Sequence record: PZ445428.1
Strand: one strand, 5' to 3'
Source of the DNA: a phage
DNA: 64,000 bases
A model generated the notes under the pieces. That model was given only the letters and a program-made list of their open reading frames with translations. It did not search any database and was not told the origin of the DNA. The position numbers were made by a program, and so were the translations under genes. This document shows positions 1-53,508 of this stretch, piece by piece (position 1 is the stretch's first letter; the number at the start of each line of letters is the position of its first letter).

Positions 1-1317
1 ATGGAAGTCTCAAGACCGTATATTAACACTACGGATATTATTGACTTTGGTATAGACAAGCGATTCTTTCGTCTACCAGTCTCTAGCATCCTAGCCCAAG
101 AGGGGATTATACCTAATGCCCCTCAGGTAGCAATTATTAATGCTCTAGAAGATCCTAGGCATCGTTTCGTAACAGCATGTGTATCACGTCGTGTAGGTAA
201 GTCATTCATAGCATATACACTTGGGTTCTTAAAACTTCTGGAACCCAATGTAAAAGTACTAGTAGTTGCACCTAACTACTCATTGGCCAACATCGGTTGG
301 TCACAGATTCGTGGTCTTATTAAGAAGTATGGATTGCAGACTGAACGTGAGAACGCCAAAGATAAAGAGATTGAGCTGGCAAACGGCTCGCTCTTCAAAC
401 TGGCTTCTGCGGCACAAGCTGACTCCGCGGTTGGACGTTCGTATGATTTCATCATCTTTGACGAAGCAGCGATTTCCGACGTTGGTGGTGCAGCATTTGA
501 CATTCAGCTACGTCCTACTCTAGATAAGCCAAACTCTAAAGCTCTATTTATCTCTACTCCTCGTGGTGGTAACTGGTTTAAAGAGTTCTATGAGAAAGGG
601 TTTAACGAAACGTTACCTGGCTGGGTATCTATTCATGGTACATATCGTGACAACCCACGTGCTGACCTGAACGATATCGAGGAGGCGCGTCGTACTGTTA
701 GTAAAAACTATTTCCGCCAAGAGTATGAGGCTGACTTCTCCGTATTCGAAGGTCAGATCTTTGATACCTTTAATGCTATTGAGCACGTTAAAGATCTCAA
801 GGGTATGCGTCACTTCTTTAAAGATGATGAAGCATTCGAAACGTTACTTGGTATTGACGTTGGTTATCGTGACCCAACAGCTGTTCTTACTATCAAATAT
901 CATTACGATACCGATATCTACTACGTACTGGAAGAGTATCAACAGGCAGAGAAAACTACTGCCCAACATGCTGCTTATATCCAGCACTGTATAGATCGTT
1001 ATAACGTTGACCGTATATTTGTAGACTCCGCTGCTGCTCAGTTCCGTCAGGACTTAGCATACGAACACGAGATCGCTTCTGCACCCGCTAAGAAATCTGT
1101 CCTAGATGGTTTAGCATGCCTGCAAGCACTCTTCCAGCAGGGTAAGATCATCGTAGATGCTTCATGCACCTCATTGATTCACGCACTGGCCAACTACAAA
1201 TGGGACTTCCAAGAAGGTGAAGAAAAATTATCACGTGAAAAACCACGTCATGATGCAAGTTCACACCTTTGTGACGCCCTGCGTTATGGAATTTACTCAA
1301 TTTCCCGTGGGAAATAA
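1..1317 (+). CDS. Terminase large subunit (ATPase/nuclease); N-terminus may be cut by the window edge
   Basis: 438-aa ORF with Walker A-like VSRRVGKSF and acidic Walker B-like FIIFDEAA; sits directly upstream of portal in a head-morphogenesis order. Confidence 0.8.
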   Translation: MEVSRPYINTTDIIDFGIDKRFFRLPVSSILAQEGIIPNAPQVAIINALEDPRHRFVTACVSRRVGKSFIAYTLGFLKLLEPNVKVLVVAPNYSLANIGWSQIRGLIKKYGLQTERENAKDKEIELANGSLFKLASAAQADSAVGRSYDFIIFDEAAISDVGGAAFDIQLRPTLDKPNSKALFISTPRGGNWFKEFYEKGFNETLPGWVSIHGTYRDNPRADLNDIEEARRTVSKNYFRQEYEADFSVFEGQIFDTFNAIEHVKDLKGMRHFFKDDEAFETLLGIDVGYRDPTAVLTIKYHYDTDIYYVLEEYQQAEKTTAQHAAYIQHCIDRYNVDRIFVDSAAAQFRQDLAYEHEIASAPAKKSVLDGLACLQALFQQGKIIVDASCTSLIHALANYKWDFQEGEEKLSREKPRHDASSHLCDALRYGIYSISRGK

Positions 1318-1376
1318 ATAAGTTTAGGATGGGATACTACTCAGTTGGTATCCCATTCCTACATTTTAAAATCCCC

Positions 1377-1405
1377 TTTACAAATTCGACATGATTATGT
1401 ATACT
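1377..1405 (+). promoter_or_regulatory. Candidate sigma70-type promoter upstream of HNH gene
   Basis: TTTACA-17 nt-TATACT. Confidence 0.3.
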
Positions 1406-1431
1406 ATATTCATACAGTTGAGGAGAATACT

Positions 1432-1869
1432 GTGGCGAGTAATGTAAAATACAAACGTGATGCAATATCACTCATGCGAGACGGTATAAAAAGTCAATAT
1501 AAAAAAGCCGCTTGCTGCGAAATCTGTGGTTGTGAAGAAGAATTAGAGCTTCATCATTACCATACAGTGTCTCTACTAGTTAAAAAATTTGCTAAAGAAC
1601 TCCAATTGGATTTCACTGACGAAGAAACAGTCCTCTCAAATAGGACGGCATTCTATGAAAGATATAGGCATGAGCTAGTAGATGACACTGTTACCCTTTG
1701 TGTCCACCATCACCAACTATTACACAAGGTGTACACTAAAGAGCCTCCCCTTTTCTCTGCTAATAAGCAGAAGGCATGGGTTCTTAAACAAAAGGAAAAG
1801 CTACAGAATCCTCACAAAGAGACACAAGTCAAGACTGAAAATAAATCAGGATTCGCAAGGTTCTTATAA
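1432..1869 (+). CDS. HNH endonuclease
   Basis: CCEICGCEE...LELHHYH...CVHHHQLLH motif (Cys pairs plus His-rich HNH core). Start moved to GTG at 1432, which follows GAGGAG (1420-1425); the track ORF begins at TTG 1345 with no SD. Confidence 0.65.
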   Translation: MASNVKYKRDAISLMRDGIKSQYKKAACCEICGCEEELELHHYHTVSLLVKKFAKELQLDFTDEETVLSNRTAFYERYRHELVDDTVTLCVHHHQLLHKVYTKEPPLFSANKQKAWVLKQKEKLQNPHKETQVKTENKSGFARFL

Positions 1870-3086
1870 TGGGTTTAAAAAGCTGGATTACTGAAAAGCT
1901 AAATCCGGGTCAACGTATTATAAGAGACATGGAACCAGTTAGTCATCGTACTAACCGAAAGCCCTATACCACAGGTCAAGCCTACAGTAAGATTGAGATT
2001 CTCAACCGAACTGCTAACATGGTCATTGATAGTGCGGCTGAGTGTTCTTATACTGTCGGAGCAAAATATAATATTGTCACGTATGCTAATGGCGTCAAGG
2101 CAAAGACTCTAGACACTCTCTTAAATGTACGACCTAATCCATTCATGGATATAAGCACATTCCGTAGACTTGTAGTCACTGACCTACTTTTTGAAGGTTG
2201 TGCGTATATCTATTGGGATGGCACAGCACTTTACCATGTCCCGGCTGCTCTTATGCAGGTCGAGGCAGATGCCAATAAGTTTATCAAAAAATTTATATTT
2301 AATAATCAGATAGACTATCGCGTAGATGAGATTATCTTTATAAAGGATAACAGTTACGTGTGTGGCACAAACTCTCAAATTTCTGGACAATCTCGTGTTG
2401 CTACTGTTATTGACTCTCTTGAGAAGCGTTCTAAAATGCTCAACTTTAAAGAGAAGTTCCTCGATAACGGCACCGTGATTGGTCTTATTCTTGAGACGGA
2501 TGAAATCCTGAACAAGAAATTGCGTGAGCGTAAACAAGAAGAATTACAACTCGATTATAATCCTAGTACGGGTCAGTCTACTGTCCTGATTCTAGATGGT
2601 GGTATGAAAGCAAAACCGTACTCCCAAATATCCTCATTTAAAGATCTAGACTTTAAAGACGACATTGAACGTTTCGATAAGAGCGTCTGTCTGGCTTTTG
2701 GTGTTCCGCAAGTTCTGATTGATGGTGGTAATAACGCTAATATTCGACCAAACATCGAATTGTTCTACTACATGACAATCGTTCCTATGCTGAACAAACT
2801 GACTAGTTCTCTTACTTTCTTCTTTGGTTACAAGATTACTCCTGATACTAAGGAAGTAGTTGCGTTAACTCCAGATAAGGAAGCTGAGGCTAAACATTTA
2901 ACCTCTCTGGTTAATAACGGTATCATGACTGGTAACGAAGCTCGACAAGAGCTGAACCTTGAACCTTTAGATGATGAGCAGATGAATAAGATTCGTATTC
3001 CTGCTAACGTTGCTGGTTCTGCTACAGGTGTATCTGGTCAAGAAGGTGGTAGACCGCAAGGTTCCGCCGAAGGGGATGAAGAATGA
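1869..3086 (+). CDS. Portal protein
   Basis: 405-aa ORF between terminase and protease/capsid genes; start overlaps upstream stop (TAATG); size and position typical of siphovirus portal. Confidence 0.75.
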   Translation: MGLKSWITEKLNPGQRIIRDMEPVSHRTNRKPYTTGQAYSKIEILNRTANMVIDSAAECSYTVGAKYNIVTYANGVKAKTLDTLLNVRPNPFMDISTFRRLVVTDLLFEGCAYIYWDGTALYHVPAALMQVEADANKFIKKFIFNNQIDYRVDEIIFIKDNSYVCGTNSQISGQSRVATVIDSLEKRSKMLNFKEKFLDNGTVIGLILETDEILNKKLRERKQEELQLDYNPSTGQSTVLILDGGMKAKPYSQISSFKDLDFKDDIERFDKSVCLAFGVPQVLIDGGNNANIRPNIELFYYMTIVPMLNKLTSSLTFFFGYKITPDTKEVVALTPDKEAEAKHLTSLVNNGIMTGNEARQELNLEPLDDEQMNKIRIPANVAGSATGVSGQEGGRPQGSAEGDEE

Positions 3087-3565
3087 TTGATTATGATGGT
3101 CTGAAGGCCATTTTTGGTGAGAAGTTACCAGAATCTCATATCTTCTTTGCTACGGTTGCAGCACACAAGTTTGTTCCGAACTACACTACTCTACGTAAAG
3201 AGTTCGGAATGACCACTGCACATACCAACCGCAAGGTTTGGAATAAGTTCAAAGAAGCTTACGAAGTTACTGCTCCGGTTGTCCCGGCTCTAGCTTTCAC
3301 GAAGAATCTGGCTAAAACTCTAGCTATTGAAGAAGGCACAGCAATTAATCTAGGTGTTACGGTTACTGGTGGTACTGCACCATATACGTATGCTTGGACT
3401 AAAGATGGTTCTCCACTGAGTGGTGCTACCGGCCCTAACTTCAATAAAGCAACCGCGGCTGCAGGAGATGCAGGTACTTACAAAGTCGTAGTAACGGATA
3501 GTAAATCTACCGCCATTACTTCTAACGAGTGTGTAACTACTGTTAATCCTGCTGCTGGAGGCTAA
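3083..3565 (+). CDS. Capsid decoration protein with C-terminal Ig-like domain
   Basis: 160 aa; C-terminal TVTGGTAPYTYAWTKDGSPL...GTYKVVVTD is an Ig-like fold signature; position between portal and protease matches T5-type decoration protein. Confidence 0.55.
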   Translation: MIDYDGLKAIFGEKLPESHIFFATVAAHKFVPNYTTLRKEFGMTTAHTNRKVWNKFKEAYEVTAPVVPALAFTKNLAKTLAIEEGTAINLGVTVTGGTAPYTYAWTKDGSPLSGATGPNFNKATAAAGDAGTYKVVVTDSKSTAITSNECVTTVNPAAGG

Positions 3566-4215: not shown

Positions 4216-5592
4216 ATGACTATTGATATTAATAAGCTGAAGGAAGAACTTGGTCTGGGTGATCTGGCTAAATCTCTGGAAGGTCTGACTGCTGCTCAGA
4301 AAGCTGCGGAAGCTAAGCGTCTGCGTGAAGAGCAGGAAGAAAAAGAACTGGCTCGTATGAATGACCTGGTTGCTAAAGCTGTTGGCGAAGATCGTCAGAA
4401 AATGCAGGAAGCTCTGGATCTGGTTAAATCTCTGGACGAAAAGTCTAAGAAGAGCGCAGAACTGTTTGCACAGACGGTAGAGAAGCAGCAGGAAACCATC
4501 GTTGGTCTTCAGGACGAAATCAAATCTCTCCTGGCGGCACGTGACGGTCGTTCTTTCGTAGCTGACAACATCTCCAAAGCACTTCGTGGTGATCAGAACG
4601 CTTTCGAGGACGAAGTTGAAAAACTGGTTCTTCTGTCCTATGTAATGGAGAAAGGCGTATTTGATACTGACCATGGTCAGGCTCACCTGAAAGCTGTAAA
4701 CGCTTCATCTTCTGTTGAAGTATCTAGCGAATCTTACGAAACTATCTTCTCCCAGCGTATCATCCGTGATCTGCAGAAAGAACTGGTAGTTGGTGCTCTG
4801 TTCGAAGAACTGCCAATGTCCAGCAAACTTCTGACTATGCTGGTTGAGCCAGATGCTGGTCGCGCTACTTGGGTAGATGCTTCTACTTACGGTACTGATG
4901 CTACTACTGGTAACGAAGTTAAAGGTGCTCTGACTGAAATTCAGTTCAAGACCTACAAACTGGCTGCTAAGTCCTTCATCACTGATGAAACTGAAGAAGA
5001 TGCTATCTTCTCCCTGCTGCCTCTGTTACGTAAGCGTCTGATCGAAGCACACGCTGTTTCTATCGAAGAAGCTTTCATGACTGGTGACGGTTCTGGTAAG
5101 CCTAAAGGTCTGTTGACTCTGGCTTCCGAAGACAGTGCTAAAGTTGTTACCGAAGCTAAAGCTGACGGTTCCGTACTGGTAACTGCTAAGACTATCTCTA
5201 AGCTGCGTCGTAAACTGGGTCGCCACGGTCTGAAGCTTTCCAAGCTGGTACTGATCGTGTCTATGGATGCTTATTACGATCTGCTGGAAGATGAAGAATG
5301 GCAGGACGTTGCTCAGGTTGGTAACGATGCTGTTAAACTGCAGGGTCAGGTTGGTCGTATTTACGGTCTGCCGGTTGTAGTTTCTGAGTACTTCCCAGCT
5401 AAGGCTGCTTCTGCAGAATTCGCAGTAATCGTCTACAAGGACAACTTCGTAATGCCGCGTCAGCGTGCTGTTACTGTTGAACGTGAGCGCCAAGCTGGCA
5501 AACAGCGTGACGCATACTACGTTACTCAGCGTGTTAACCTGCAACGTTACTTCGAGAACGGCGTTGTATCCGGTGCTTACGCTGCATCTTAA
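4216..5592 (+). CDS. Major capsid protein precursor (N-terminal coiled-coil scaffold/delta domain)
   Basis: 458 aa; N-terminal roughly 150 aa strongly coiled-coil and charged; highly biased codon usage (ctg/cgt/gct); followed by a strong hairpin terminator. Confidence 0.85.
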   Translation: MTIDINKLKEELGLGDLAKSLEGLTAAQKAAEAKRLREEQEEKELARMNDLVAKAVGEDRQKMQEALDLVKSLDEKSKKSAELFAQTVEKQQETIVGLQDEIKSLLAARDGRSFVADNISKALRGDQNAFEDEVEKLVLLSYVMEKGVFDTDHGQAHLKAVNASSSVEVSSESYETIFSQRIIRDLQKELVVGALFEELPMSSKLLTMLVEPDAGRATWVDASTYGTDATTGNEVKGALTEIQFKTYKLAAKSFITDETEEDAIFSLLPLLRKRLIEAHAVSIEEAFMTGDGSGKPKGLLTLASEDSAKVVTEAKADGSVLVTAKTISKLRRKLGRHGLKLSKLVLIVSMDAYYDLLEDEEWQDVAQVGNDAVKLQGQVGRIYGLPVVVSEYFPAKAASAEFAVIVYKDNFVMPRQRAVTVERERQAGKQRDAYYVTQRVNLQRYFENGVVSGAYAAS

Positions 5593-8860: not shown

Positions 8861-9757
8861 ATGTACTACTCTCTAATGCGAGAGTCGAAAGTTATAGTTG
8901 AGTACGATGGCAGGGCGTATCACTTTGACGCTCTGTCAAACTATGATATCAATACCTCCTACGAGGAATTTAAAACTCTTCGTAGGACTATTCATCGCAG
9001 AACCAACTATGCTGACTCTGTTATTAACGCACAAGCTCCATCATCAATATCGCTGGCTATAAATTTTAGTAATACCCTTACTGAGGCTAACTTCTTTGAA
9101 TGGATGGGCTTTGATAGAGAGGGTACTACCTTCCTACTACCACTTTATAGCACGAATATTGAACCAACAATGTTTAATATCTACATAGTTAATAAAGATA
9201 ATAACTGTGTATATTTTGAAAACTGTTTTGTATCTAACGTTGACTTCTCACTTGATAAGAATGTCCCTGTGCTGAATGTTGGTATTGAGTCTGGTAAGTT
9301 CTCTGAGGTATCCACGTACACTCCTGCTGGTATTGTTCAAGGCGAGGTTATGTCTTACAGCCCTCCTAGAGTAGCTACAAACAGTAATATTTTACCTGCT
9401 CTTTTATCCGCTTCTATGTCCTTCCAGCAGCAATGCTCTTGGAGAGAAGATAAAAGCGTATTTGACATAAACAAAATATATAATAATAAAAGAGCTTATG
9501 TTAATGAGATGAATGCTTCGGCAACAATTGCGTTCTACTACACCAAGCGATTTGCTGGTGATATGTTCTACAATATTGAACCTGAGACTGATATCCCTTT
9601 AACTATACGAAATGAACATATTTCGGTTGATTTCCCTTCAGCACGTATAACAAAACGCCTACAATTCTCGGATCTGTACAGGATTGAGTGGGATGTAATT
9701 CCTACTGCTGATTCTGATCCGGTAAGAATCGACTTCTTTGGAGAAATAAAGAAATGA
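8861..9757 (+). CDS. Minor tail protein (tail-tube-like, putative)
   Basis: 298-aa ORF between tail tube and tape measure genes; synteny only. Confidence 0.4.
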   Translation: MYYSLMRESKVIVEYDGRAYHFDALSNYDINTSYEEFKTLRRTIHRRTNYADSVINAQAPSSISLAINFSNTLTEANFFEWMGFDREGTTFLLPLYSTNIEPTMFNIYIVNKDNNCVYFENCFVSNVDFSLDKNVPVLNVGIESGKFSEVSTYTPAGIVQGEVMSYSPPRVATNSNILPALLSASMSFQQQCSWREDKSVFDINKIYNNKRAYVNEMNASATIAFYYTKRFAGDMFYNIEPETDIPLTIRNEHISVDFPSARITKRLQFSDLYRIEWDVIPTADSDPVRIDFFGEIKK

Positions 9758-20405: not shown

Positions 20406-23400
20406 TGGCGATCAGAACTAAAATTATTGTACAGCAGATTCTGAACATAGATGACACTACAACTACTGCTAGTAAGTATCCTAAGTATACAGTAGTTTTA
20501 GGTAACTCTATTAGTTCTATTACTGCTGGTGAGCTGACTGCAGCTGTGGAATCATCCGCAGCTTCAGCTGCTGCTGCTAAAGATTCTGAAATTGCAGCAA
20601 AATCATCCGAAACTAATGCTAGAGACTCAGAAAATAGAGCCGCTATCTATGCTGATTCTTCTGAAGCTTCTGCTACTCAATCAGCTACTTCTGCTACAGA
20701 ATCTGAGAGACAGGCTGAATTATCTAAGGCTAGCGCTGAAGAATCCGCTGCATCTGCTACAGAAGCTGGTACACACAAAGATGCGGCTCAGTTAGCTGCT
20801 CAAAATGCTGAGAGAAGTAGAGAACTAGCCGAACAAGCTAAAACTGCTGCTCAACAAGCCCAGGTAGCCGCGGAGACTGCTAAGACGGGAGCTGAAACAG
20901 CTAAAGAAGGAGCAGATGCTGCTGCGACAACGGCTGGAGAACATGCTGCTGCTGCTAAACAATCAGAACTAAATGCTAAAGTTTCCGAAACTAATGCTGC
21001 TGGTTCTGCTACCGAAGCTGGTGATAAAGCTATCGATGCTACTGCTGAGGCAGACCGTGCTAAAGCAGAAGCCGATCGTGCATCCCAGGTTGTTGATGGT
21101 AAACTTGATAAAGTAGACATCTCTGGTTTTATCAAAGTTTATAAGACAAAAGCAGAAGCTGATGCGGATGTTGCAAACCGTGTTCTAGATGAAAAGATCT
21201 TAGTTTGGAATCAAACTGAGTCAAAATATGGTTGGTATAAAGTTGCAGGTACTACTAAAGCTCCTGTCCTAGAGTTAGTAGAAACTGAACAGAAACTTGT
21301 ATCAATCAATAACGTTCACGCTGATGATGCTGGTAACGTACAGATTACACTTCCAGGCGGTAACCCTTCTCTATGGTTAGGTGAAGTTACTTGGTTCCCT
21401 TATGATAAAGATTCTGGTGTTGGCTACCCTGGTGTTCTGCCTGCTGATGGACGTGAAGTACTTCGCGTAGACTATCCAGATACTTGGGAAGCTATCGAAG
21501 CTGGTCTGATCCCCTCTGTTACTGAGACTGAATGGCAGGCGGGTGCAATTCTTTACTTCTCCACTGGTGATGGTTCTACAACGTTCCGTTTACCAGATAT
21601 GATGCAAGGGCAAGCCTTCCGTGCACCAACTAAAGGCGAAGAAGATGCTGGCGTTATTAAAGATCAGATTCCTTATGTTGTGACAGTTAATGGTATCTCT
21701 CCAGATGATATAACTGGTAACGTTGAAATTGATACCTCACTACAAGGTACTGTTAATATTAATCAAGGAGGTACTGGTGCAACAACTAAAGAAGACGCCC
21801 GTATAGCCCTCGAGCTATATAGTACTACGGAAGTTGATTCTGCTTTAGCAGATAAGGCCGATATTGCTACCACGTATACTAAGATGGAAGTTGATTCTGC
21901 TTTAGCAGATAAGGCCGATATTGCTACCACGTATACTAAGATGGAAGTTGATTCTGCTTTAGCAGACGCTAAAACTCAGTCAGATACTAACTACTTATTA
22001 AAAGCAAATAACTTGAGTGATCTCGGAGACCGTACTGCTGCATGGCTTAACGTGCGACCACTTGGCTCTACTCCACTGGCGTCAGACCCTGTAAGTGACT
22101 ATGACGCCACAACTAAGCGCTGGGTGCAGAACTTAATCGGCGCAGGGACTGTAGGCCCGACAATGAACGGGGTCATGAATTATGGTGTTGGGGATTTCCA
22201 CCTACGGGATAGCAGGGCGTATATTCAACCTTATGAGGTATTATCAGACGGTCAATTGCTTAATCGTGCAGCATGGCCTGAATTGTGGGCATATGCTCAG
22301 ATGCTATCCCCTATCAGTGATGCTGAGTGGCTTAGTTCTGCGGAAAAACGTGGGCGTTATTCCACCGGTGATGGGTCAACAACCTTCCGTGTTCCAGACC
22401 GAAACGGTGTGCAGCCTGGGTCAACGACTAGTCTTTTTGGACGAGGGGATGGTGGTACTTCATCAGAGAACGGTAGGGTTTATGAAGCTGCTGCACCTAA
22501 TATATTGGGGACATTTGCAAATGATACCAGCGGAAAGGTGTGGATGCCTGCTCCAAAATCAGTAACGGGATCTTTTGGTTATGCCCCAACAACAGAAATG
22601 ACATTTTTACCTAATGATGGTTCCTTTGTAAAAGTCAATAACAATGCTACTACGACCTTTAATGCGAGATTGAGCGACGAGGTATATGGTAAATACGAAG
22701 TTAAAAATCAGATACTGCCCAAAAGTTTTGTAGGTGTTTGGGTTATTCGCGCATCCGGAGGTTTTACTGCTGCAAATACGTCATGGTCTGTGATCAATGC
22801 GGATGCTGTGGTTCCTGGAGCTAATGTTACTACTTATGGTGGTGATATGTGGTCAACATACCAAGTGGCTGGTGCTGATTATGTCAAATTAGGCTATCGT
22901 GCGAAAGTCACTATTGATGGTGCGTCTACAGGAGAAATCCGTCTAATGGATAGCAGGGTAGGGGGTACTAGCAAAACCTGGGAAATGCCTACTGTCAGTG
23001 GTACGCTTCTTAGTAGTGCGGATATAGGAACTTCAGGAGCTAAAATCCCTTTACTTAACGTTCAGAACATGTGGACAAAAACTCAGGTTTTCCAAGAATC
23101 AGGTGTTGTCACTCAATCGGTGCTGCCATCGGATGCTACTTTAAATGATCACGGCGGTCCTCATTTTGTTTCATATGTTATAACTGATAATCAAATTCGT
23201 TTAGGCGCTAAATTCTTTTCTAGTTTTGATTCTACGAATTTAAGAAGAGCCGTTGTCCAAGTCACAACAGATAACGATGCTTCCGCCCAGATATTTGCAT
23301 TTGATCAGAGAGGGGATATTTCATCTGCGAAAGGTATTGTACAGTGGAGTGGCTCTGATACCCGTATTAAGACTAACTTTGAACCTGTGCAAAGTGGGTC

Positions 23401-27756: not shown

Positions 27757-29595
27757 TTATTCTAAGTAGGAAAATCCTTCTGCATCTTTTTTGACAGTAA
27801 TCTTATGGGCTAATGGATGCGTATGCCCATGAGAAACAATGATAGAGTTCAGACTATCTTCCTCATTTAATAATTCAACGAGAGTGTCAAGCCCTTTCGT
27901 ATCAATAAAGCTAATCACTTCATCAAGGAACAGAAGATTAATGTTAACTTTACTAATAGATGTTAACAGCATACGAATCGCTAACAGTGTTGCTAGGTTA
28001 ATTCGACTTTGCTGACCAGTAGAGCAGTTCTCCATACTGGTTCTATTTCCATCATTGAAGATTACTACCTGTAATTTCGTTTCATCAAGCTCAAATCCAA
28101 GTGCGAACTTACCAGCAGTCATAATAGAAAGATATTTATTAATTAATTCTTCAAACACTTTCACACTATGCTCTAGTTTATATCCTACCAGATTTTTCAA
28201 AGCAGCAATCAGAATATCAAGATCAGCTACAGCTTCGGCTACTCCATCAAGTTTGGAAGTAATCTCAGTCATTTCTGCTTCTGCTTTCTCTATCTGTTCT
28301 AGCTTTGCTTTATACCTTGCATTGGCAACTTCAACATTTGAGTTATGCTCTTTAGCCCTTGCAACTTTGGAACGGCCATCCGCTATTTCCTGTTCAAGCT
28401 GTAGGATTTGCACCTGTAGGATTTGCACATTGAGTTCTTCAAAAGAGGAATCACTCATTGAATTTTTGAACTCGTCTCTAGCTGCTACTGCCTTATCCAA
28501 AGCATCTTTAGCTCTAGTGTACGCAGTGTACTCGAGTTGTTCTTTCTTTAATACTTCCAGTTGCGCTTCGAGTGTCTGCTTCTCTTTAAATAGAGGATCA
28601 TATTCCACTCGTGCCATATCCATAGCTTTTTGTGCAGCCGTTGTATCCAGATGAGTTCCGCAGGTAGGACATTCAGTTGCTGAAGCCTCATGCTTGAACT
28701 TCTGATAACGTTTCTTGACTTCGCCCGCACGTGAGGTAACAATCGTTAGGTCACGCGTAACATTCGAGATATCGTCGTTTTTGCACATGGGCGCGGGAAG
28801 ATTTTGATAAGGCTCGAAAGATTTTTCGGCAACTTGTACAGCTTTGTCCAAATTACGTAACTTAGTAATATTAGCTTCTTGTGCTTTAGCTAATGCCGCC
28901 TTGACTTTCGACTCAGTCAACTCTTGTGACAGTGGTTCTTCATCAAACTCAGGAACTTCAACTGGCTCCTGCAAACTTCCGAGATTGTCTTTACTATTGA
29001 GAATCTTCGTAATTACAGCCATTTGGCCTTGCAGATTACTTAATGTAGCTGCCACTTCTTTACGATCAGTCTTAATAGTTTCAGACATTTCTTTATATTG
29101 CTCTTGATTAAACAAGTTAACAAGAAATGCTTTACGTGTTGCATCAGTAGCTTTGAGGAAGTCTAGATTTGAACCAACAGATTGATAGATCAATTTGGTG
29201 AACGTTTGGAAATCTCCACCCATAATCTCTTCGATCATCTTGTACGTTTGAGTTGCTGTGTGTCCACTGACATCTTCTCCGTTCTTAATCAGTGTAACTT
29301 TAGCAGTTGATTTAACAACTTTATGCAGCTCGTACTCATCTTCATCTTTCGAGAAGTAAGCGTGCATTTCGTACTCTTTCTTCGGAGCGCTCCATGAGAA
29401 GAGGGCGTCCTTCTTGATACCACGTGAGTTCTTATTATAAAAGAGTTCCTCAAGAACAGTAGCAATAGTGGACTTCCCTAAACCATTTTCTCCGATTAAC
29501 TGAGTAACTGGGTTCTTATCGAAATGAATCACGATATCCTTACCGTAAGACATAACGTTGCTGAATTTTAGTGTCTTAATTATAATCTTTGACAT
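27757..29595 (-). CDS. SbcC/Rad50-like recombination ATPase
   Basis: Walker A ENGLGKST, long central coiled coil with CPTCG zinc-hook-like motif, C-terminal LLFLDEV Walker B. Start set to ATG at 29595 (MSKIII); track ORF begins at TTG 29625. Confidence 0.75.
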   Translation of the reverse strand: MSKIIIKTLKFSNVMSYGKDIVIHFDKNPVTQLIGENGLGKSTIATVLEELFYNKNSRGIKKDALFSWSAPKKEYEMHAYFSKDEDEYELHKVVKSTAKVTLIKNGEDVSGHTATQTYKMIEEIMGGDFQTFTKLIYQSVGSNLDFLKATDATRKAFLVNLFNQEQYKEMSETIKTDRKEVAATLSNLQGQMAVITKILNSKDNLGSLQEPVEVPEFDEEPLSQELTESKVKAALAKAQEANITKLRNLDKAVQVAEKSFEPYQNLPAPMCKNDDISNVTRDLTIVTSRAGEVKKRYQKFKHEASATECPTCGTHLDTTAAQKAMDMARVEYDPLFKEKQTLEAQLEVLKKEQLEYTAYTRAKDALDKAVAARDEFKNSMSDSSFEELNVQILQVQILQLEQEIADGRSKVARAKEHNSNVEVANARYKAKLEQIEKAEAEMTEITSKLDGVAEAVADLDILIAALKNLVGYKLEHSVKVFEELINKYLSIMTAGKFALGFELDETKLQVVIFNDGNRTSMENCSTGQQSRINLATLLAIRMLLTSISKVNINLLFLDEVISFIDTKGLDTLVELLNEEDSLNSIIVSHGHTHPLAHKITVKKDAEGFSYLE

Positions 29596-30553
29596 ATTTA
29601 GCAGCTCTAGCCAAAATTCGATCAATATCGTCTTGGGTCAGCTTTTCAACTTCACGGAAGTAAAGTTCTAGCTCGCCTAACATATCAAGATCGACAAGAT
29701 TTAATTTAGCATCTTTAGTAACTCGATGGTTAATCTTTTTATCTAAGAGATCGGAGTTCTTAACAGACTTCAACTGAACAACGTCACCAGTGACTTCATA
29801 GATTACACGGTCATAATCACTTGGTTCCATTTCTTCGCCAACCTCGATTGTCCTACGAATCAATTGAGGTAAATCACCAAGTTCAATCCATTCTACTTTT
29901 AATGTGTCGGTATCGATGATGAAACAACCATTCGTACCTTTTGTGCGTTCTCTATGGAACGATGTAGTTAACGGAGATCCTGGATAAAGAAGTTTAGTAG
30001 AACCAATAGTTTGACTATTAGTATAAGAATGTAAATCGCCAGCAATTACAGTGTCATAACAGTTATACCTCGTTAGATCAATCTCTGGTTTTACATGTGG
30101 AGGGATTTCACCACGAACATGCGTGAAACATAGTTTTGATTCAGATGGTTTCCACTTCGGTTTGTGGATTTCAGCGTAGGGAACTATATCATATTCTGGT
30201 GAACGATAGGGCTTAGTAACAACATCCCATTTTCCATTAGTTACCTTATGGATAACTCCAGCATAGTGATACAAACATGAAATTGTTTTGGTTAACATTT
30301 CATGGTTTCCGGTGAAGATCTTACCGGGATGATCAAGTCTTGACATGAATTGTTCAAGAAGTTCTACTTCTTCCGACGACGGGTCGGAATGGTCAAATAA
30401 ATCACCACCAATAATATGAAGATCACAGTTATGATTATGGAATACATCATTTAAACGGCCCCCCAACATTAAGAATCTCTTCTTTTGCCATTCTTTGGGG
30501 ATTTTGTCCTGTCCAAGTTTTATATGATGATCTGCGCTAAAGAGTATTTTCAT
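29576..30553 (-). CDS. SbcD/Mre11-like nuclease (calcineurin-type phosphoesterase)
   Basis: LFSADHH, GGDLFDH, GNHE, HVRG metallophosphatase motifs; adjacent to SbcC-like gene. Confidence 0.8.
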   Translation of the reverse strand: MKILFSADHHIKLGQDKIPKEWQKKRFLMLGGRLNDVFHNHNCDLHIIGGDLFDHSDPSSEEVELLEQFMSRLDHPGKIFTGNHEMLTKTISCLYHYAGVIHKVTNGKWDVVTKPYRSPEYDIVPYAEIHKPKWKPSESKLCFTHVRGEIPPHVKPEIDLTRYNCYDTVIAGDLHSYTNSQTIGSTKLLYPGSPLTTSFHRERTKGTNGCFIIDTDTLKVEWIELGDLPQLIRRTIEVGEEMEPSDYDRVIYEVTGDVVQLKSVKNSDLLDKKINHRVTKDAKLNLVDLDMLGELELYFREVEKLTQDDIDRILARAAKYVKDYN

Positions 30554-31074
30554 CTTTGTGCATACTTTCGCTTTATCTCTTGAATATCTATTCCTTGTTT
30601 CAGTTCACTCAAAACCTGGACTAAGATGCCCTCGAGATCTTTTCGTTCTTTACTAGCCATTATATGGTAGTGTTTTTTTTTTTTTTTATTATAATACAAA
30701 CGTAGAGTATATGTACTTGATTTGACATTGTAGCTTATATTTCCAGAATAATTTTCTATATTCTGCATGTTAGATCGGTGATCACCGTTTTTGAGGTTGT
30801 CCCATCTATTATCGTGTCGTATGCGATTATCATGGTCAATTTCTTCTGGCATCTCCCCGGTTTGCATTAACCAAATAAGTCTGTGCAACCTATATTTAGT
30901 TCCAAATACCATAGCATCTAAATATCCAGACTGCTTAGAGGGAGTTCCTACAGGTTTTCCTACACAATCTTTAGGAAGTCCATTTGACCATACTTTATAG
31001 GTTACAATACCTGTATCTGGATCATATGAGAATCTACGATGACATTCATTGTACAACTTAACTAAATCATCCAT
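30550..31074 (-). CDS. HNH homing endonuclease (HNH_3-like)
   Basis: GKPVG...GY...YRLHRL...IDHDNR...DNRWDNL motif set; paralogous to ORF 57161-57679; contains an A15 run (KKKKK). Confidence 0.6.
   Translation of the reverse strand: MDDLVKLYNECHRRFSYDPDTGIVTYKVWSNGLPKDCVGKPVGTPSKQSGYLDAMVFGTKYRLHRLIWLMQTGEMPEEIDHDNRIRHDNRWDNLKNGDHRSNMQNIENYSGNISYNVKSSTYTLRLYYNKKKKKHYHIMASKERKDLEGILVQVLSELKQGIDIQEIKRKYAQR
30673..30687 (-). repeat. Homopolymer run (T15 on plus strand, A15 on coding strand) inside HNH ORF
   Basis: 15 consecutive T at 30673-30687; encodes KKKKK in the minus-strand ORF. Confidence 0.9.
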
Positions 31075-40063: not shown

Positions 40064-40834
40064 TTATTTTTTCTCCAATAGTTCTTTAATCGACAGGATT
40101 TCTATCCCATTCGTTTCGGCTTTCTTATAAGATGAGGAAGAACGCTTTGATTCATCCTCACAGATGAGGTAGTTTACGTCTTTGGTAACGGACTTCTTAA
40201 CCGTATATCCTAGACTTTCTAAGTAGTTTGTTGCATCCGTTCTATTTGCAAAATCTTGCAAAGAACCGGTAATACATACCACGATTCCGTTCGGTTGAGC
40301 AACTAAATCATCGATAAAGATGATATCAGCTTTTGTGCCCCGAATACCAGAACTAAATTTCCATGGTAGTTCGATAACATCCTTGCCTTGTGGGGAATTT
40401 AGCCAGGCTTTATAATTTTCTCCAGCTTTGCCGTCAGCCTTAACATCATTAAAACTAATGCAACCCTGGGATAGCTTTTTAGCAGCAACCTCTCCAATCA
40501 GAGGGATTCCTAAAGAACCGAGAACTGAACCAAAGTCAATGTCTCCGCGAACCTTAGTATTTAACTCGCTAATTAACTTAGCGGCAACCTTACTTCCCAC
40601 AGCTCCGACCAAATCTTCTTCGGTCAGGTAAAACAGTTCTGAGATCTTAGTCAGTTCCAGCTTTTCAATTGTTTTCGGGCCAAAGCCCTTTAACTTCATC
40701 TTTGTGCAGAAGTTCTCAATTAACTTACTTGACTGAGCTGGACAGTTGGACTTATTCCGACAGAATAATTGTCCGTTGACAAGATCTAGCTTAGAACCAC
40801 AAGAGGGACATTGTGTTGGAATTTCGATTTTCAT
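40064..40834 (-). CDS. ligB: NAD-dependent DNA ligase, C-terminal part (zinc finger/HhH/BRCT-like)
   Basis: Begins CPSCGSKLDLVNGQLFCRNKSNCPAQ (LigA-type Cys4 zinc finger) then HhH-like GFGPKTIEKL. ATG at 40834 after AAGGAAG. Confidence 0.7.
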   Translation of the reverse strand: MKIEIPTQCPSCGSKLDLVNGQLFCRNKSNCPAQSSKLIENFCTKMKLKGFGPKTIEKLELTKISELFYLTEEDLVGAVGSKVAAKLISELNTKVRGDIDFGSVLGSLGIPLIGEVAAKKLSQGCISFNDVKADGKAGENYKAWLNSPQGKDVIELPWKFSSGIRGTKADIIFIDDLVAQPNGIVVCITGSLQDFANRTDATNYLESLGYTVKKSVTKDVNYLICEDESKRSSSSYKKAETNGIEILSIKELLEKK

Positions 40835-40866
40835 CAAATTTCTTCCTTATCAATTTATATAACTAT

Positions 40867-40895
40867 TATAGCAAGTATTTAAGCATTTAGCAACT
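40867..40895 (-). promoter_or_regulatory. Early promoter cassette inside the ligA-ligB spacer
   Basis: Minus strand TTGCTA-17 nt-TATAAT then AGTTATATAAATTGATAAGGAAG and ATG 40834. Confidence 0.5.
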
Positions 40896-41040
40896 ACAAT
40901 TTTAACTAACTTTGCTTACCCTCGCCATAACTTTCTATCCCTCAACTGAATGATAATAGTATATACCTAAGCGGCGAAAATGTCAATAACCACTTTATAA
41001 TTCCGACATGGGAAACGGGTAGCAAAGGGTTATGAATTAC

Positions 41041-42012
41041 TTAATCTACTCGCTCTACAATACATGGGATTACACCACCAGCACGAATCACTCGAATCTG
41101 GCAACCGATCTCTAAATCGAGAGCGTTAATGTAATCAACGTTATTGAGAGTTGCTTTAATAATCTTGGCATCGTCAATAATTACCGGTTCGAAATATCCA
41201 ACAGGAGTTACTTTACCAGAAGCCCCTACCTGCCACTCAACTTTGAGAAGAGTTGTAATTTCGCCTTCTTCATCTTGTTTAATTGCATAAGCACCACGAG
41301 GATGTTTATTTGTCCAACCTTCACGGAAGAATTTGTTGTTGTCATTAATACGAACAACTTTACCATCCATTGGATACCAGTTGAAGTAGTTTTTAATATT
41401 CAGTACAGTGATGAAATCTTCGTTAGCTAACCAAGACATATCATCTAAGTAAGAGCCTGTAATACCTACAGAATCTTCGGAACACTGAATACCATAAGCT
41501 ACAAAGATCAATCCACCTTCCGCAATACGTTCGATGAAGTCATCTTCTTCTTTTAAGTTAATAGCACCAGAAGCGTAGTTACGTTTGTTTTCTACTTCTT
41601 TAGTGATAAGAACTTCACCAGTGATTTGAGTTGGTACTTTCTGAGAAATCTTTTTCGGAATGTTCAGCAATCTAACGTTGCTTGTGACATCATTTCCTAG
41701 AATACCATTACCACGAGTTAACGCTTGAACAAACGTTCCGTCGATATACAACAGAGAAATTGCGCAACCGTCTAGCTTATCAGTTTCTACATCATCAAGA
41801 GTAGTGAATGGAGCTTTATCACCCCGATCGAAGTAAACTTTCTGCAAAGAATACATACGATACAGATGTGGGATATCACCTTTCGGACCGATGGCATCTT
41901 CCGCTGTTGGGAAACGTTTAAGCAGACGATCATACTCAGCATCAGAGATAATACTATAACCCTGATAATACGCTTCTTGACAACGTTGGATAAACTCTTT
42001 TACATTATTCAT
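41041..42012 (-). CDS. ligA: NAD-dependent DNA ligase, N-terminal adenylation/OB part
   Basis: KLDGCAIS (KxDG adenylation motif), N-terminal AYYQGYSIISDAEYDRL NAD-binding-like segment. Start set to ATG 42012 (MNNVKEF); track begins at TTG 42054. Confidence 0.75.
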   Translation of the reverse strand: MNNVKEFIQRCQEAYYQGYSIISDAEYDRLLKRFPTAEDAIGPKGDIPHLYRMYSLQKVYFDRGDKAPFTTLDDVETDKLDGCAISLLYIDGTFVQALTRGNGILGNDVTSNVRLLNIPKKISQKVPTQITGEVLITKEVENKRNYASGAINLKEEDDFIERIAEGGLIFVAYGIQCSEDSVGITGSYLDDMSWLANEDFITVLNIKNYFNWYPMDGKVVRINDNNKFFREGWTNKHPRGAYAIKQDEEGEITTLLKVEWQVGASGKVTPVGYFEPVIIDDAKIIKATLNNVDYINALDLEIGCQIRVIRAGGVIPCIVERVD

Positions 42013-53396: not shown

Positions 53397-53508
53397 CCCG
53401 CGCCCATGTACGCGATATAAAATGATTATCTAGTATCATACATCTCCCTCTATAAGCAAGCAAATTTTTTATTTAACTGCAATGTCATAGGCTTATTTAA
53501 AATTGTAG

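Follow-up and report, generated by a model that had tools for sequence, protein, structure and literature searches.

A core gene between the large terminase and portal genes of a T5-like phage is very probably the ortholog of the T5 SciA nicking endonuclease

Genes and features between the large terminase and the portal

The window analyzed here is a stretch of 64,000 nucleotides of phage DNA, in which a small nuclease gene lies between the genes for the large terminase subunit (TerL) and the portal protein. Positions 1-3200 of the window match Escherichia phage TrudiGerster (Bas27, MZ501108) at 100% (megablast, 3,200 bases compared), and window positions correspond to MZ501108 positions minus 482. 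TrudiGerster is a T5-like phage of the genus Epseptimavirus, family Demerecviridae, with hundreds of relatives at 80-95% (megablast). The features of the locus, together with sites elsewhere in the window that are discussed below, are collected in Table 1.

Table 1. Coordinates of the features discussed in the text, in window positions
Feature	Position	Strand	Basis or remark
Large terminase subunit (TerL), upstream neighbour	1..1317	+	Pfam Terminase_6N (8e-15) and Terminase_6C (4e-11); GenBank
13-bp stem-loop followed by a T-rich tail, predicted to be terminator- or attenuator-like	1327..1358	+	Terminator scan; just past the TerL stop
In-frame 5' extension of the maximal open reading frame, non-coding, within the TerL-sciA spacer	1345..1431	+	Without counterpart in homologs
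Sigma-70-like promoter match, TTTACA-17-TATACT	1377..1405	+	Consensus scan, 10/12 matches; a consensus match only
Ribosome-binding site, GAGGAG	1420..1425	+	6 nt ahead of GTG 1432; direct reading
sciA ortholog, predicted site-specific nicking endonuclease	1432..1869	+	GTG start, 145 aa, TAA stop overlapping the portal ATG
Portal protein, downstream neighbour	1869..3086	+	Pfam Phage_portal (1e-49)
Candidate extra or minor nick site, G/GCGCAGG	22139..22146	+	Inside a lateral tail fibre gene, on the nicked strand
Predicted SciA target, G/GCGCGGG	28790..28797	+	Ortholog of the T5 '64.8%' nick 78573/78574; inside a D13/SbcC-like gene
Sole full opposite-strand motif, G/GCGCGGG	53397..53404	-	14 nt (ACATGGGCGCGGGA) common to the 28790 site

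A first-pass annotation of this DNA had placed the gene between terminase and portal with overlapping stop and start codons, and this placement is borne out: both neighbours are recognized by Pfam, and the sciA stop and portal start form a TAATG in which base 1869 is common to both. From this overlap, translation of the portal is predicted to be coupled to termination at the sciA stop. The gene limits given in that annotation, 1345-1869, stand only as those of an open reading frame; the maximal frame on the + strand does begin there (TTG start, 174 aa), but 1345 is merely the first possible start, and the true gene runs from the GTG at 1432 to 1869. In fact, the GenBank CDS bas27_0003 occupies precisely window positions 1432-1869, with a GTG start and 145 aa, and is annotated as 'nicking endonuclease'. 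The Met encoded by this GTG is the start of all 29 aligned homologs (29/29), each of which opens with MAxN, and the crystallised T5 protein described below begins at the same Met, while the 5' extension 1345-1431 is present in none of the 29. Based on the GenBank CDS, the ribosome-binding site, the starts of the homologs and that of the crystallised protein, a start at TTG 1345, which itself falls within the hairpin, was rejected. Because the ribosome-binding site and the homolog and T5 starts all point to 1432, and the hairpin and the promoter-like match overlap the extension, positions 1345-1431 are regarded as intergenic. That sciA is a real gene is far beyond chance, with homologs in 901 phage records and a crystal structure of the T5 ortholog.

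In the spacer that separates TerL from sciA (1318-1431), RNA folding of positions 1310-1440 keeps the hairpin 1327-1358 in the centroid structure (z = -1.98). Hairpin and promoter-like match, in that order, suggest that sciA, the portal gene and the head genes may own a separate transcription start after an attenuator.

Two further observations concern other parts of the window. The window and MZ501108 were found to differ in length at one place only, a run of 15 T at positions 30673-30687 that has 13 T in the record. The run falls within the 3' portion of a - strand gene annotated as 'putative homing endonuclease', whose open reading frame here spans 30550-31074 (174 aa, versus 139 aa in GenBank); the cause is either ambiguous sequencing or a slippery run of A. 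Separately, the annotation splits the NAD-dependent DNA ligase at approximately 40064-42012 (- strand) into an A-subunit and a B-subunit CDS, which lie about 200 bp apart.

Relationship to the SciA protein of T5

A phmmer search of the PDB with the window protein retrieved chains 9qgv_A and 9qgx_A, named 'Nicking endonuclease', at E 2e-76, with residues 1-145 aligning to chain positions 4-148. These chains are the translated T5 gene T5.153 except for a H42Q or H42A change, and the titles of the two entries (released on 2026-03-25) describe the SciA(H42A) and SciA(H42Q) endonuclease of Escherichia phage T5 with 10 bp DNA (GCGC sequence 1 and 2). Identity between the window protein and T5.153 is 79% over the full length, both proteins having 145 aa. 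Moreover, all 92 database homologs (92/92) carry the family PF26848, Phage_T5_Nicking_endo, the corresponding UniRef cluster is named 'Nicking endonuclease', PHROG 3497 is matched at 7e-67, and the predicted fold superposes on the T5 SciA-DNA crystal structure at 1.4 A. Since T5.153, 79% identical, is the SciA of 9QGV and 9QGX, and since the homologs carry PF26848, the window gene is assigned as a SciA ortholog, and positions 1432-1869 very probably encode the TrudiGerster counterpart of the T5 site-specific nicking endonuclease.

The genes sciA and sciB have been mapped to the late region of T5, and sciB is one of the two genes held responsible for T5 nicking (PMC3517423). A literature search found no text linking T5.153 to sciA, nor the primary paper for 9QGV and 9QGX; for this reason, the activity is assigned here from the PDB titles, from the names given in Pfam, UniRef and GenBank, and from earlier genetic work on the sci genes. 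The object itself is already known: GenBank, UniRef and Pfam all list the T5-like nickase by name, and for the T5 ortholog there is a crystal structure with the GCGC target bound.

Conserved residues and predicted fold

We then examined the protein itself, which had been described as a classical HNH endonuclease with paired Cys motifs and an HHxH core. The motifs are indeed present, as CCEICGC, LHHYH and CVHHHQLLH, but the conserved set consists of one Cys pair and one Cys/His pair. Among 30 family members, down to 44% identity, residues C29, C32, E39, H41, H42, R71, C90, H93, H94 and H98 are invariant, while C28, C34 and H44 vary; the invariant C29, C32, H41, H42, C90, H93, H94 and H98 therefore give the family pattern CxxC...HH...CxxHHxxxH. 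H42 is the residue mutated in both T5 SciA crystal entries.

An AlphaFold2 model was built from the alignment of the 30 family sequences, with a mean pLDDT of 82 and values below 50 only in the first 4 and the last 15-20 or so residues. In the model, a strand at residues 38-42 (LELHH) ends in the invariant H41-H42, and a second strand at 86-90 is followed by a helix at 91-100 (CVHHHQLLH); between the two strands, approximately 43 helical residues are inserted. The region C90-x-x-H93-H94-x-x-x-H98 aligns with the canonical CxxCHxxxH. The central Asn of the H-N-H triad is not conserved, as N70 is replaced by Met, Ile or Tyr elsewhere in the family, while the adjacent R71 is invariant.

Searches against known HNH families gave few points of contact. 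With the window protein as query, no family was matched at E<=1 in Pfam-A, and none in NCBIfam; HNH models run against the 30 members yielded nothing significant (best values AI2M-like_HNH 0.078, HNHc_6 0.0099 and HNH_2 0.31); the family profile searched against all PDB sequences matched SciA alone; and global fold searches returned no canonical HNH protein, the best hit being Cap5 at E 0.66. Weak bridges were found to a PHROG HNH family (8e-5) and, through remote profile relatives, to PF01844 at E values of about 0.002-0.003, below the cut-off. As no HNH profile is significant, placement among the His-Me nucleases rests on motif logic, predicted topology and these sub-threshold bridges, which together make it likely that the SciA ortholog is a small, divergent His-Me-finger (HNH-superfamily) nuclease. 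Accordingly, the assignment to a His-Me/HNH-type nuclease is upheld by motif logic, and the stated distinctness from the homing-type HNH_3 genes can be kept as well, since sciA forms a family of its own, unrelated to them. The term 'classical', however, has to be given up for 'divergent', in view of the absence of a significant HNH profile, the non-conserved central Asn and the helical insertion in the core.

From the invariant residues and the model, we infer the following division of roles. C29, C32, C90 and H93 would form a structural zinc site of the CCCH type, and the beta-beta-alpha core would be interrupted by the inserted helices, some 43 residues long. The histidine that closes the first strand, H42, would be catalytic and act as general base, while H94 and/or H98, on the helix that follows, are the likely ligands of the catalytic metal.

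Conservation of the T5 nick sites

The consensus of the major nicks in T5 is 5'-R/GCGCRGG-3' (PMC3517423). According to the T5 feature table, the annotated major interruptions are located at 9748/9, 22336/7, 39746/7 and 78573/4, all on the minus strand, to which the + strand of TrudiGerster corresponds. For the comparison of sites, the TrudiGerster genome was rebuilt from the window and flanking sequence. For each of the four unique T5 major nick sites (4/4), the + strand of TrudiGerster offers an orthologous RGCGCRGG, at positions 101662, 88679, 69928 and 29272 of the rebuilt genome, the last being window position 28790. In the numbering of MZ501108, the first three positions are lower by about two bases. 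Two of the four target sites differ from those of T5 at the R position or in the flanks. Genome-wide, the 8-mer RGCGCRGG occurs five times on the + strand and once on the - strand. The site at 22139 is without counterpart among the annotated major nicks of T5. Regarding the single copy on the opposite strand (53397), it is kept in T5, in the phoH-nrdD divergent promoter region (3798 of the T5 segment compared), on the non-nicked strand and with changes that preserve the consensus.

The shorter GCGCRGG occurs four times in the window, versus 3.6 expected by chance; simple enrichment was thus uninformative, whereas comparison of position and orthology with the annotated T5 nicks was informative. 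In T5, five copies of the motif are reported on the un-nicked strand (PMC3517423). As the motif count is not above chance, and T5 carries copies on the strand that is not nicked, extra determinants of nicking must exist.

Considered by itself, the tetranucleotide GCGC is approximately two-fold under-represented across the window, with 53 occurrences observed versus 99.6 +/- 9.7 in dinucleotide-preserving shuffles. Avoidance of restriction, or selection against stray SciA sites, could account for this scarcity.

Proposed action of SciA and its link to packaging

In the action we propose, SciA would bind GCGC-containing sites of the form R/GCGCRGG asymmetrically and cut one strand 5' of the GCGC. 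The outcome would be the site-specific single-chain interruptions typical of T5-like virion DNA, with the + strand as the nicked strand in TrudiGerster. The gene would be a late gene of a TerS(sciB)-TerL-sciA-portal module, translationally coupled to the portal; because of the late module and of this coupling, SciA would be made during DNA packaging. Cutting of the TrudiGerster DNA by SciA is likewise a prediction. The earlier suggestion that the gene may assist DNA processing is thereby retained in a general sense, as the enzyme is predicted to act on the phage's own DNA and is encoded within the packaging and head module.

Annotation of the small terminase gene (TerS) adds to this picture. 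In both T5 (AY587007, gene T5.156) and phage E22, it is labelled 'sciB: SciB protein' (positions 4517-4999 of the AY587007 segment and 2019-2501 of the E22 segment), and its homolog immediately precedes the window. If the label is correct, the small terminase is one of the two T5 genes reported to cause nicking, and nicking would thereby be tied to packaging. In addition, the crystal models cover 119-121 of 148 residues and leave out a disordered C-terminal tail. In the window protein, this tail (window 1807-1866, residues 126-145 or so) ends in a motif found across the family of 92 homologs, [G/S/R][F/L/W]x[K/R/S/D][F/L][L/I/K/M], as in GFARFL, GFGKFL, LLDFMV, LSSFKV and RFSRFKC, and doubled in many members; by its sequence, it looks like a docking peptide. 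Gene position, the sciB annotation and the C-terminal motif make a loose link between nicking and packaging plausible. The stronger proposal, that SciA is physically recruited to the packaging machine and nicks DNA as it is packaged rather than free DNA, may fit the disordered tail motif, the coupling to the portal and the annotation of the small terminase as sciB, and if true it would account for the nicks being strand-specific and appearing late, as well as for the reported sparing of motifs on the other strand; nevertheless, we consider it unlikely at present and put it forward as a tentative idea.

The first-pass annotation had gone further in another direction, in proposing that the protein may serve as a packaging cofactor. 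By analogy with HK97 gp74, which stimulates cos cleavage (PMC13595911), it would bind TerL, stimulate or complete the double-strand cut at the genome end, and be needed for packaging, not for nicking. The position of sciA next to TerL and its coupling to the portal would agree with such a function; an alpha-helical segment is inserted in the beta-beta-alpha fold of HK97 gp74 (PMC13595911), as it is in the SciA model, and the sciB label on TerS implies that nick frequency and terminase may be genetically linked. However, the deposited structures are of a nicking endonuclease on GCGC DNA, not on genome ends, and T5-like genomes end in direct terminal repeats of approximately 10 kb, not in cos ends. 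Moreover, T5 mutants without nicks are reported to be viable (PMC3517423), while gp74 is essential in vivo (PMC13595911). No similarity was seen to the PF01844-type HNH domain of gp74-like proteins; and gp74-type genes are found beside TerS and TerL (PMC13595911) and the cohesive-end site (PMC3592412), not in the gap between TerL and portal. A gp74-type cofactor is therefore improbable, and the cofactor claim gives way to the identity of the protein as the SciA nickase, based on the PDB titles and on the reported viability of nick-less T5.

Distribution and descent of sciA

The SciA assignment was also considered from the side of its distribution, as the gene had been described as inserted between its neighbours. 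Homologs of sciA were found by tblastn in 901 phage records, compared to 908 records with a T5-type TerL (approximately 99%), and the hosts of the two sets are largely alike, comprising Escherichia, Salmonella, Klebsiella, Vibrio, Proteus and Aeromonas. Identity of SciA is 79% in T5 (TerL being at about 95% in other Tequintavirus records), approximately 70% in Klebsiella phages (TerL 89%), about 50% in the Vibrio harveyi/campbellii phage group (TerL 59%), 55% in JSF10/JSF12 (TerL 58%) and 48% in D30 (TerL 51%), D30 being the only pair for which both values come from one record. The identities of SciA and TerL thus drop together, which is the pattern expected for vertical descent.

The order TerL-sciA-portal was observed in T5, Salmonella phage E22, the Vibrio phages Athena, JSF12 and D30, and an ENA metagenome contig; two of the three Vibrio phages are classified in another subfamily, Ermolyevavirinae. 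In contigs from brine, sciA is directly upstream of the portal gene, and only small open reading frames, with no TerL, were called upstream of it. Adjacency to the portal is the constant feature: in every relative examined in the synteny comparison, sciA lies immediately upstream of the portal gene and in the same orientation. An exhaustive profile search of 1.84 billion representative proteins found only 161 relatives, and no spread into other phage groups was visible. Altogether, sciA is a core gene and not an insertion, as shown by a record count (901) close to that of the T5-type TerL (908) and by a synteny that reaches Vibrio phages and metagenomic relatives. Absence from close relatives, which would have pointed to a plain homing-endonuclease insertion, was looked for, and the gene was present essentially everywhere; the earlier view that it is not a selfish insert is strengthened by this near-universal presence, the fixed locus and the divergence in step with TerL.

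Mobile nucleases are nevertheless found close by. In T5, gene T5.154 is located between TerL and sciA (2678-3511 of the T5 segment compared) and overlaps the sciA start, whereas TrudiGerster has a 114-bp spacer with the hairpin and the promoter-like site. T5.154, a mobile-type nuclease gene missing from the window, encodes 277 aa with T5orf172/MUG113, CapR and a treble-clef zinc finger (DUF4379). At the same spot, a gene is annotated as 'homing endonuclease' in TrudiRoth and mar004NP2 and as 'endonuclease' in EH1 and S124; in the ENA metagenome contig, a T5orf172 gene is found between TerS and TerL, and a 135-aa open reading frame ahead of sciA. The TerL-sciA junction is a hotspot for insertions, where relatives have acquired mobile nucleases, and the scenario of a selfish insert therefore fits the neighbour T5.154, lacking here, and not sciA. 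That sciA would itself be a free-standing homing endonuclease, selfish DNA landed between terminase and portal, is suggested by the small size of a nuclease gene flanked by two essential genes and by the mobile nucleases that the adjoining spacer genuinely hosts, but it is most improbable given that the sporadic distribution checked for turned out to be the opposite, with sciA constant in place and orientation, diverging with TerL and confined to few relatives.

Significance and comparison with known phage nucleases

With sciA thus taken as the gene for a SciA-type nickase, the analysis corrects its start and recasts the protein as a divergent HNH nuclease instead of a classical one. It further shows the gene to be core and the adjoining spacer to be a real landing site for mobile nucleases, and it finds the four nick sites of T5 conserved in a phage of the genus Epseptimavirus. 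On the purpose of the nicks, a question that dates back to the 1960s, the window adds no testability beyond the T5 system, and its significance as a discovery is low.

Regarding known systems, HK97 gp74 is, like SciA, a small phage nuclease whose gene adjoins that of a terminase subunit, and the helical insertion in its beta-beta-alpha core has a parallel in the SciA model; the His-Me placement, likely for SciA, would be common to both. However, gp74 is a canonical HNH protein, essential, and belongs to a cos phage, while SciA matches no HNH profile and the genome that encodes it ends in long terminal repeats; furthermore, SciA would make internal single-strand nicks, which are reportedly dispensable for T5 (PMC3517423). 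The N.phiGamma-type enzymes are small phage nickases of the HNH superfamily, specific for one strand of a short sequence and encoded near terminase genes (PMC4027164, PMC3592412). They have the canonical HNH domain, in which zinc is bound by [CxxC]2 and to which zinc ribbons are often added, and YCG/GT as their site, in contrast to the predicted CCCH site, the long helical insertion and the GCGC-based site of SciA; a sequence relationship between the two was not detected in the PDB sequence and family-profile searches. Finally, the homing endonucleases of T5-like phages (HNH_3 / F-Tfl, and the T5orf172-type T5.154) are likewise small nuclease genes located between conserved genes, but they are sporadic and belong to other families, whereas sciA is a core gene of a family of its own.
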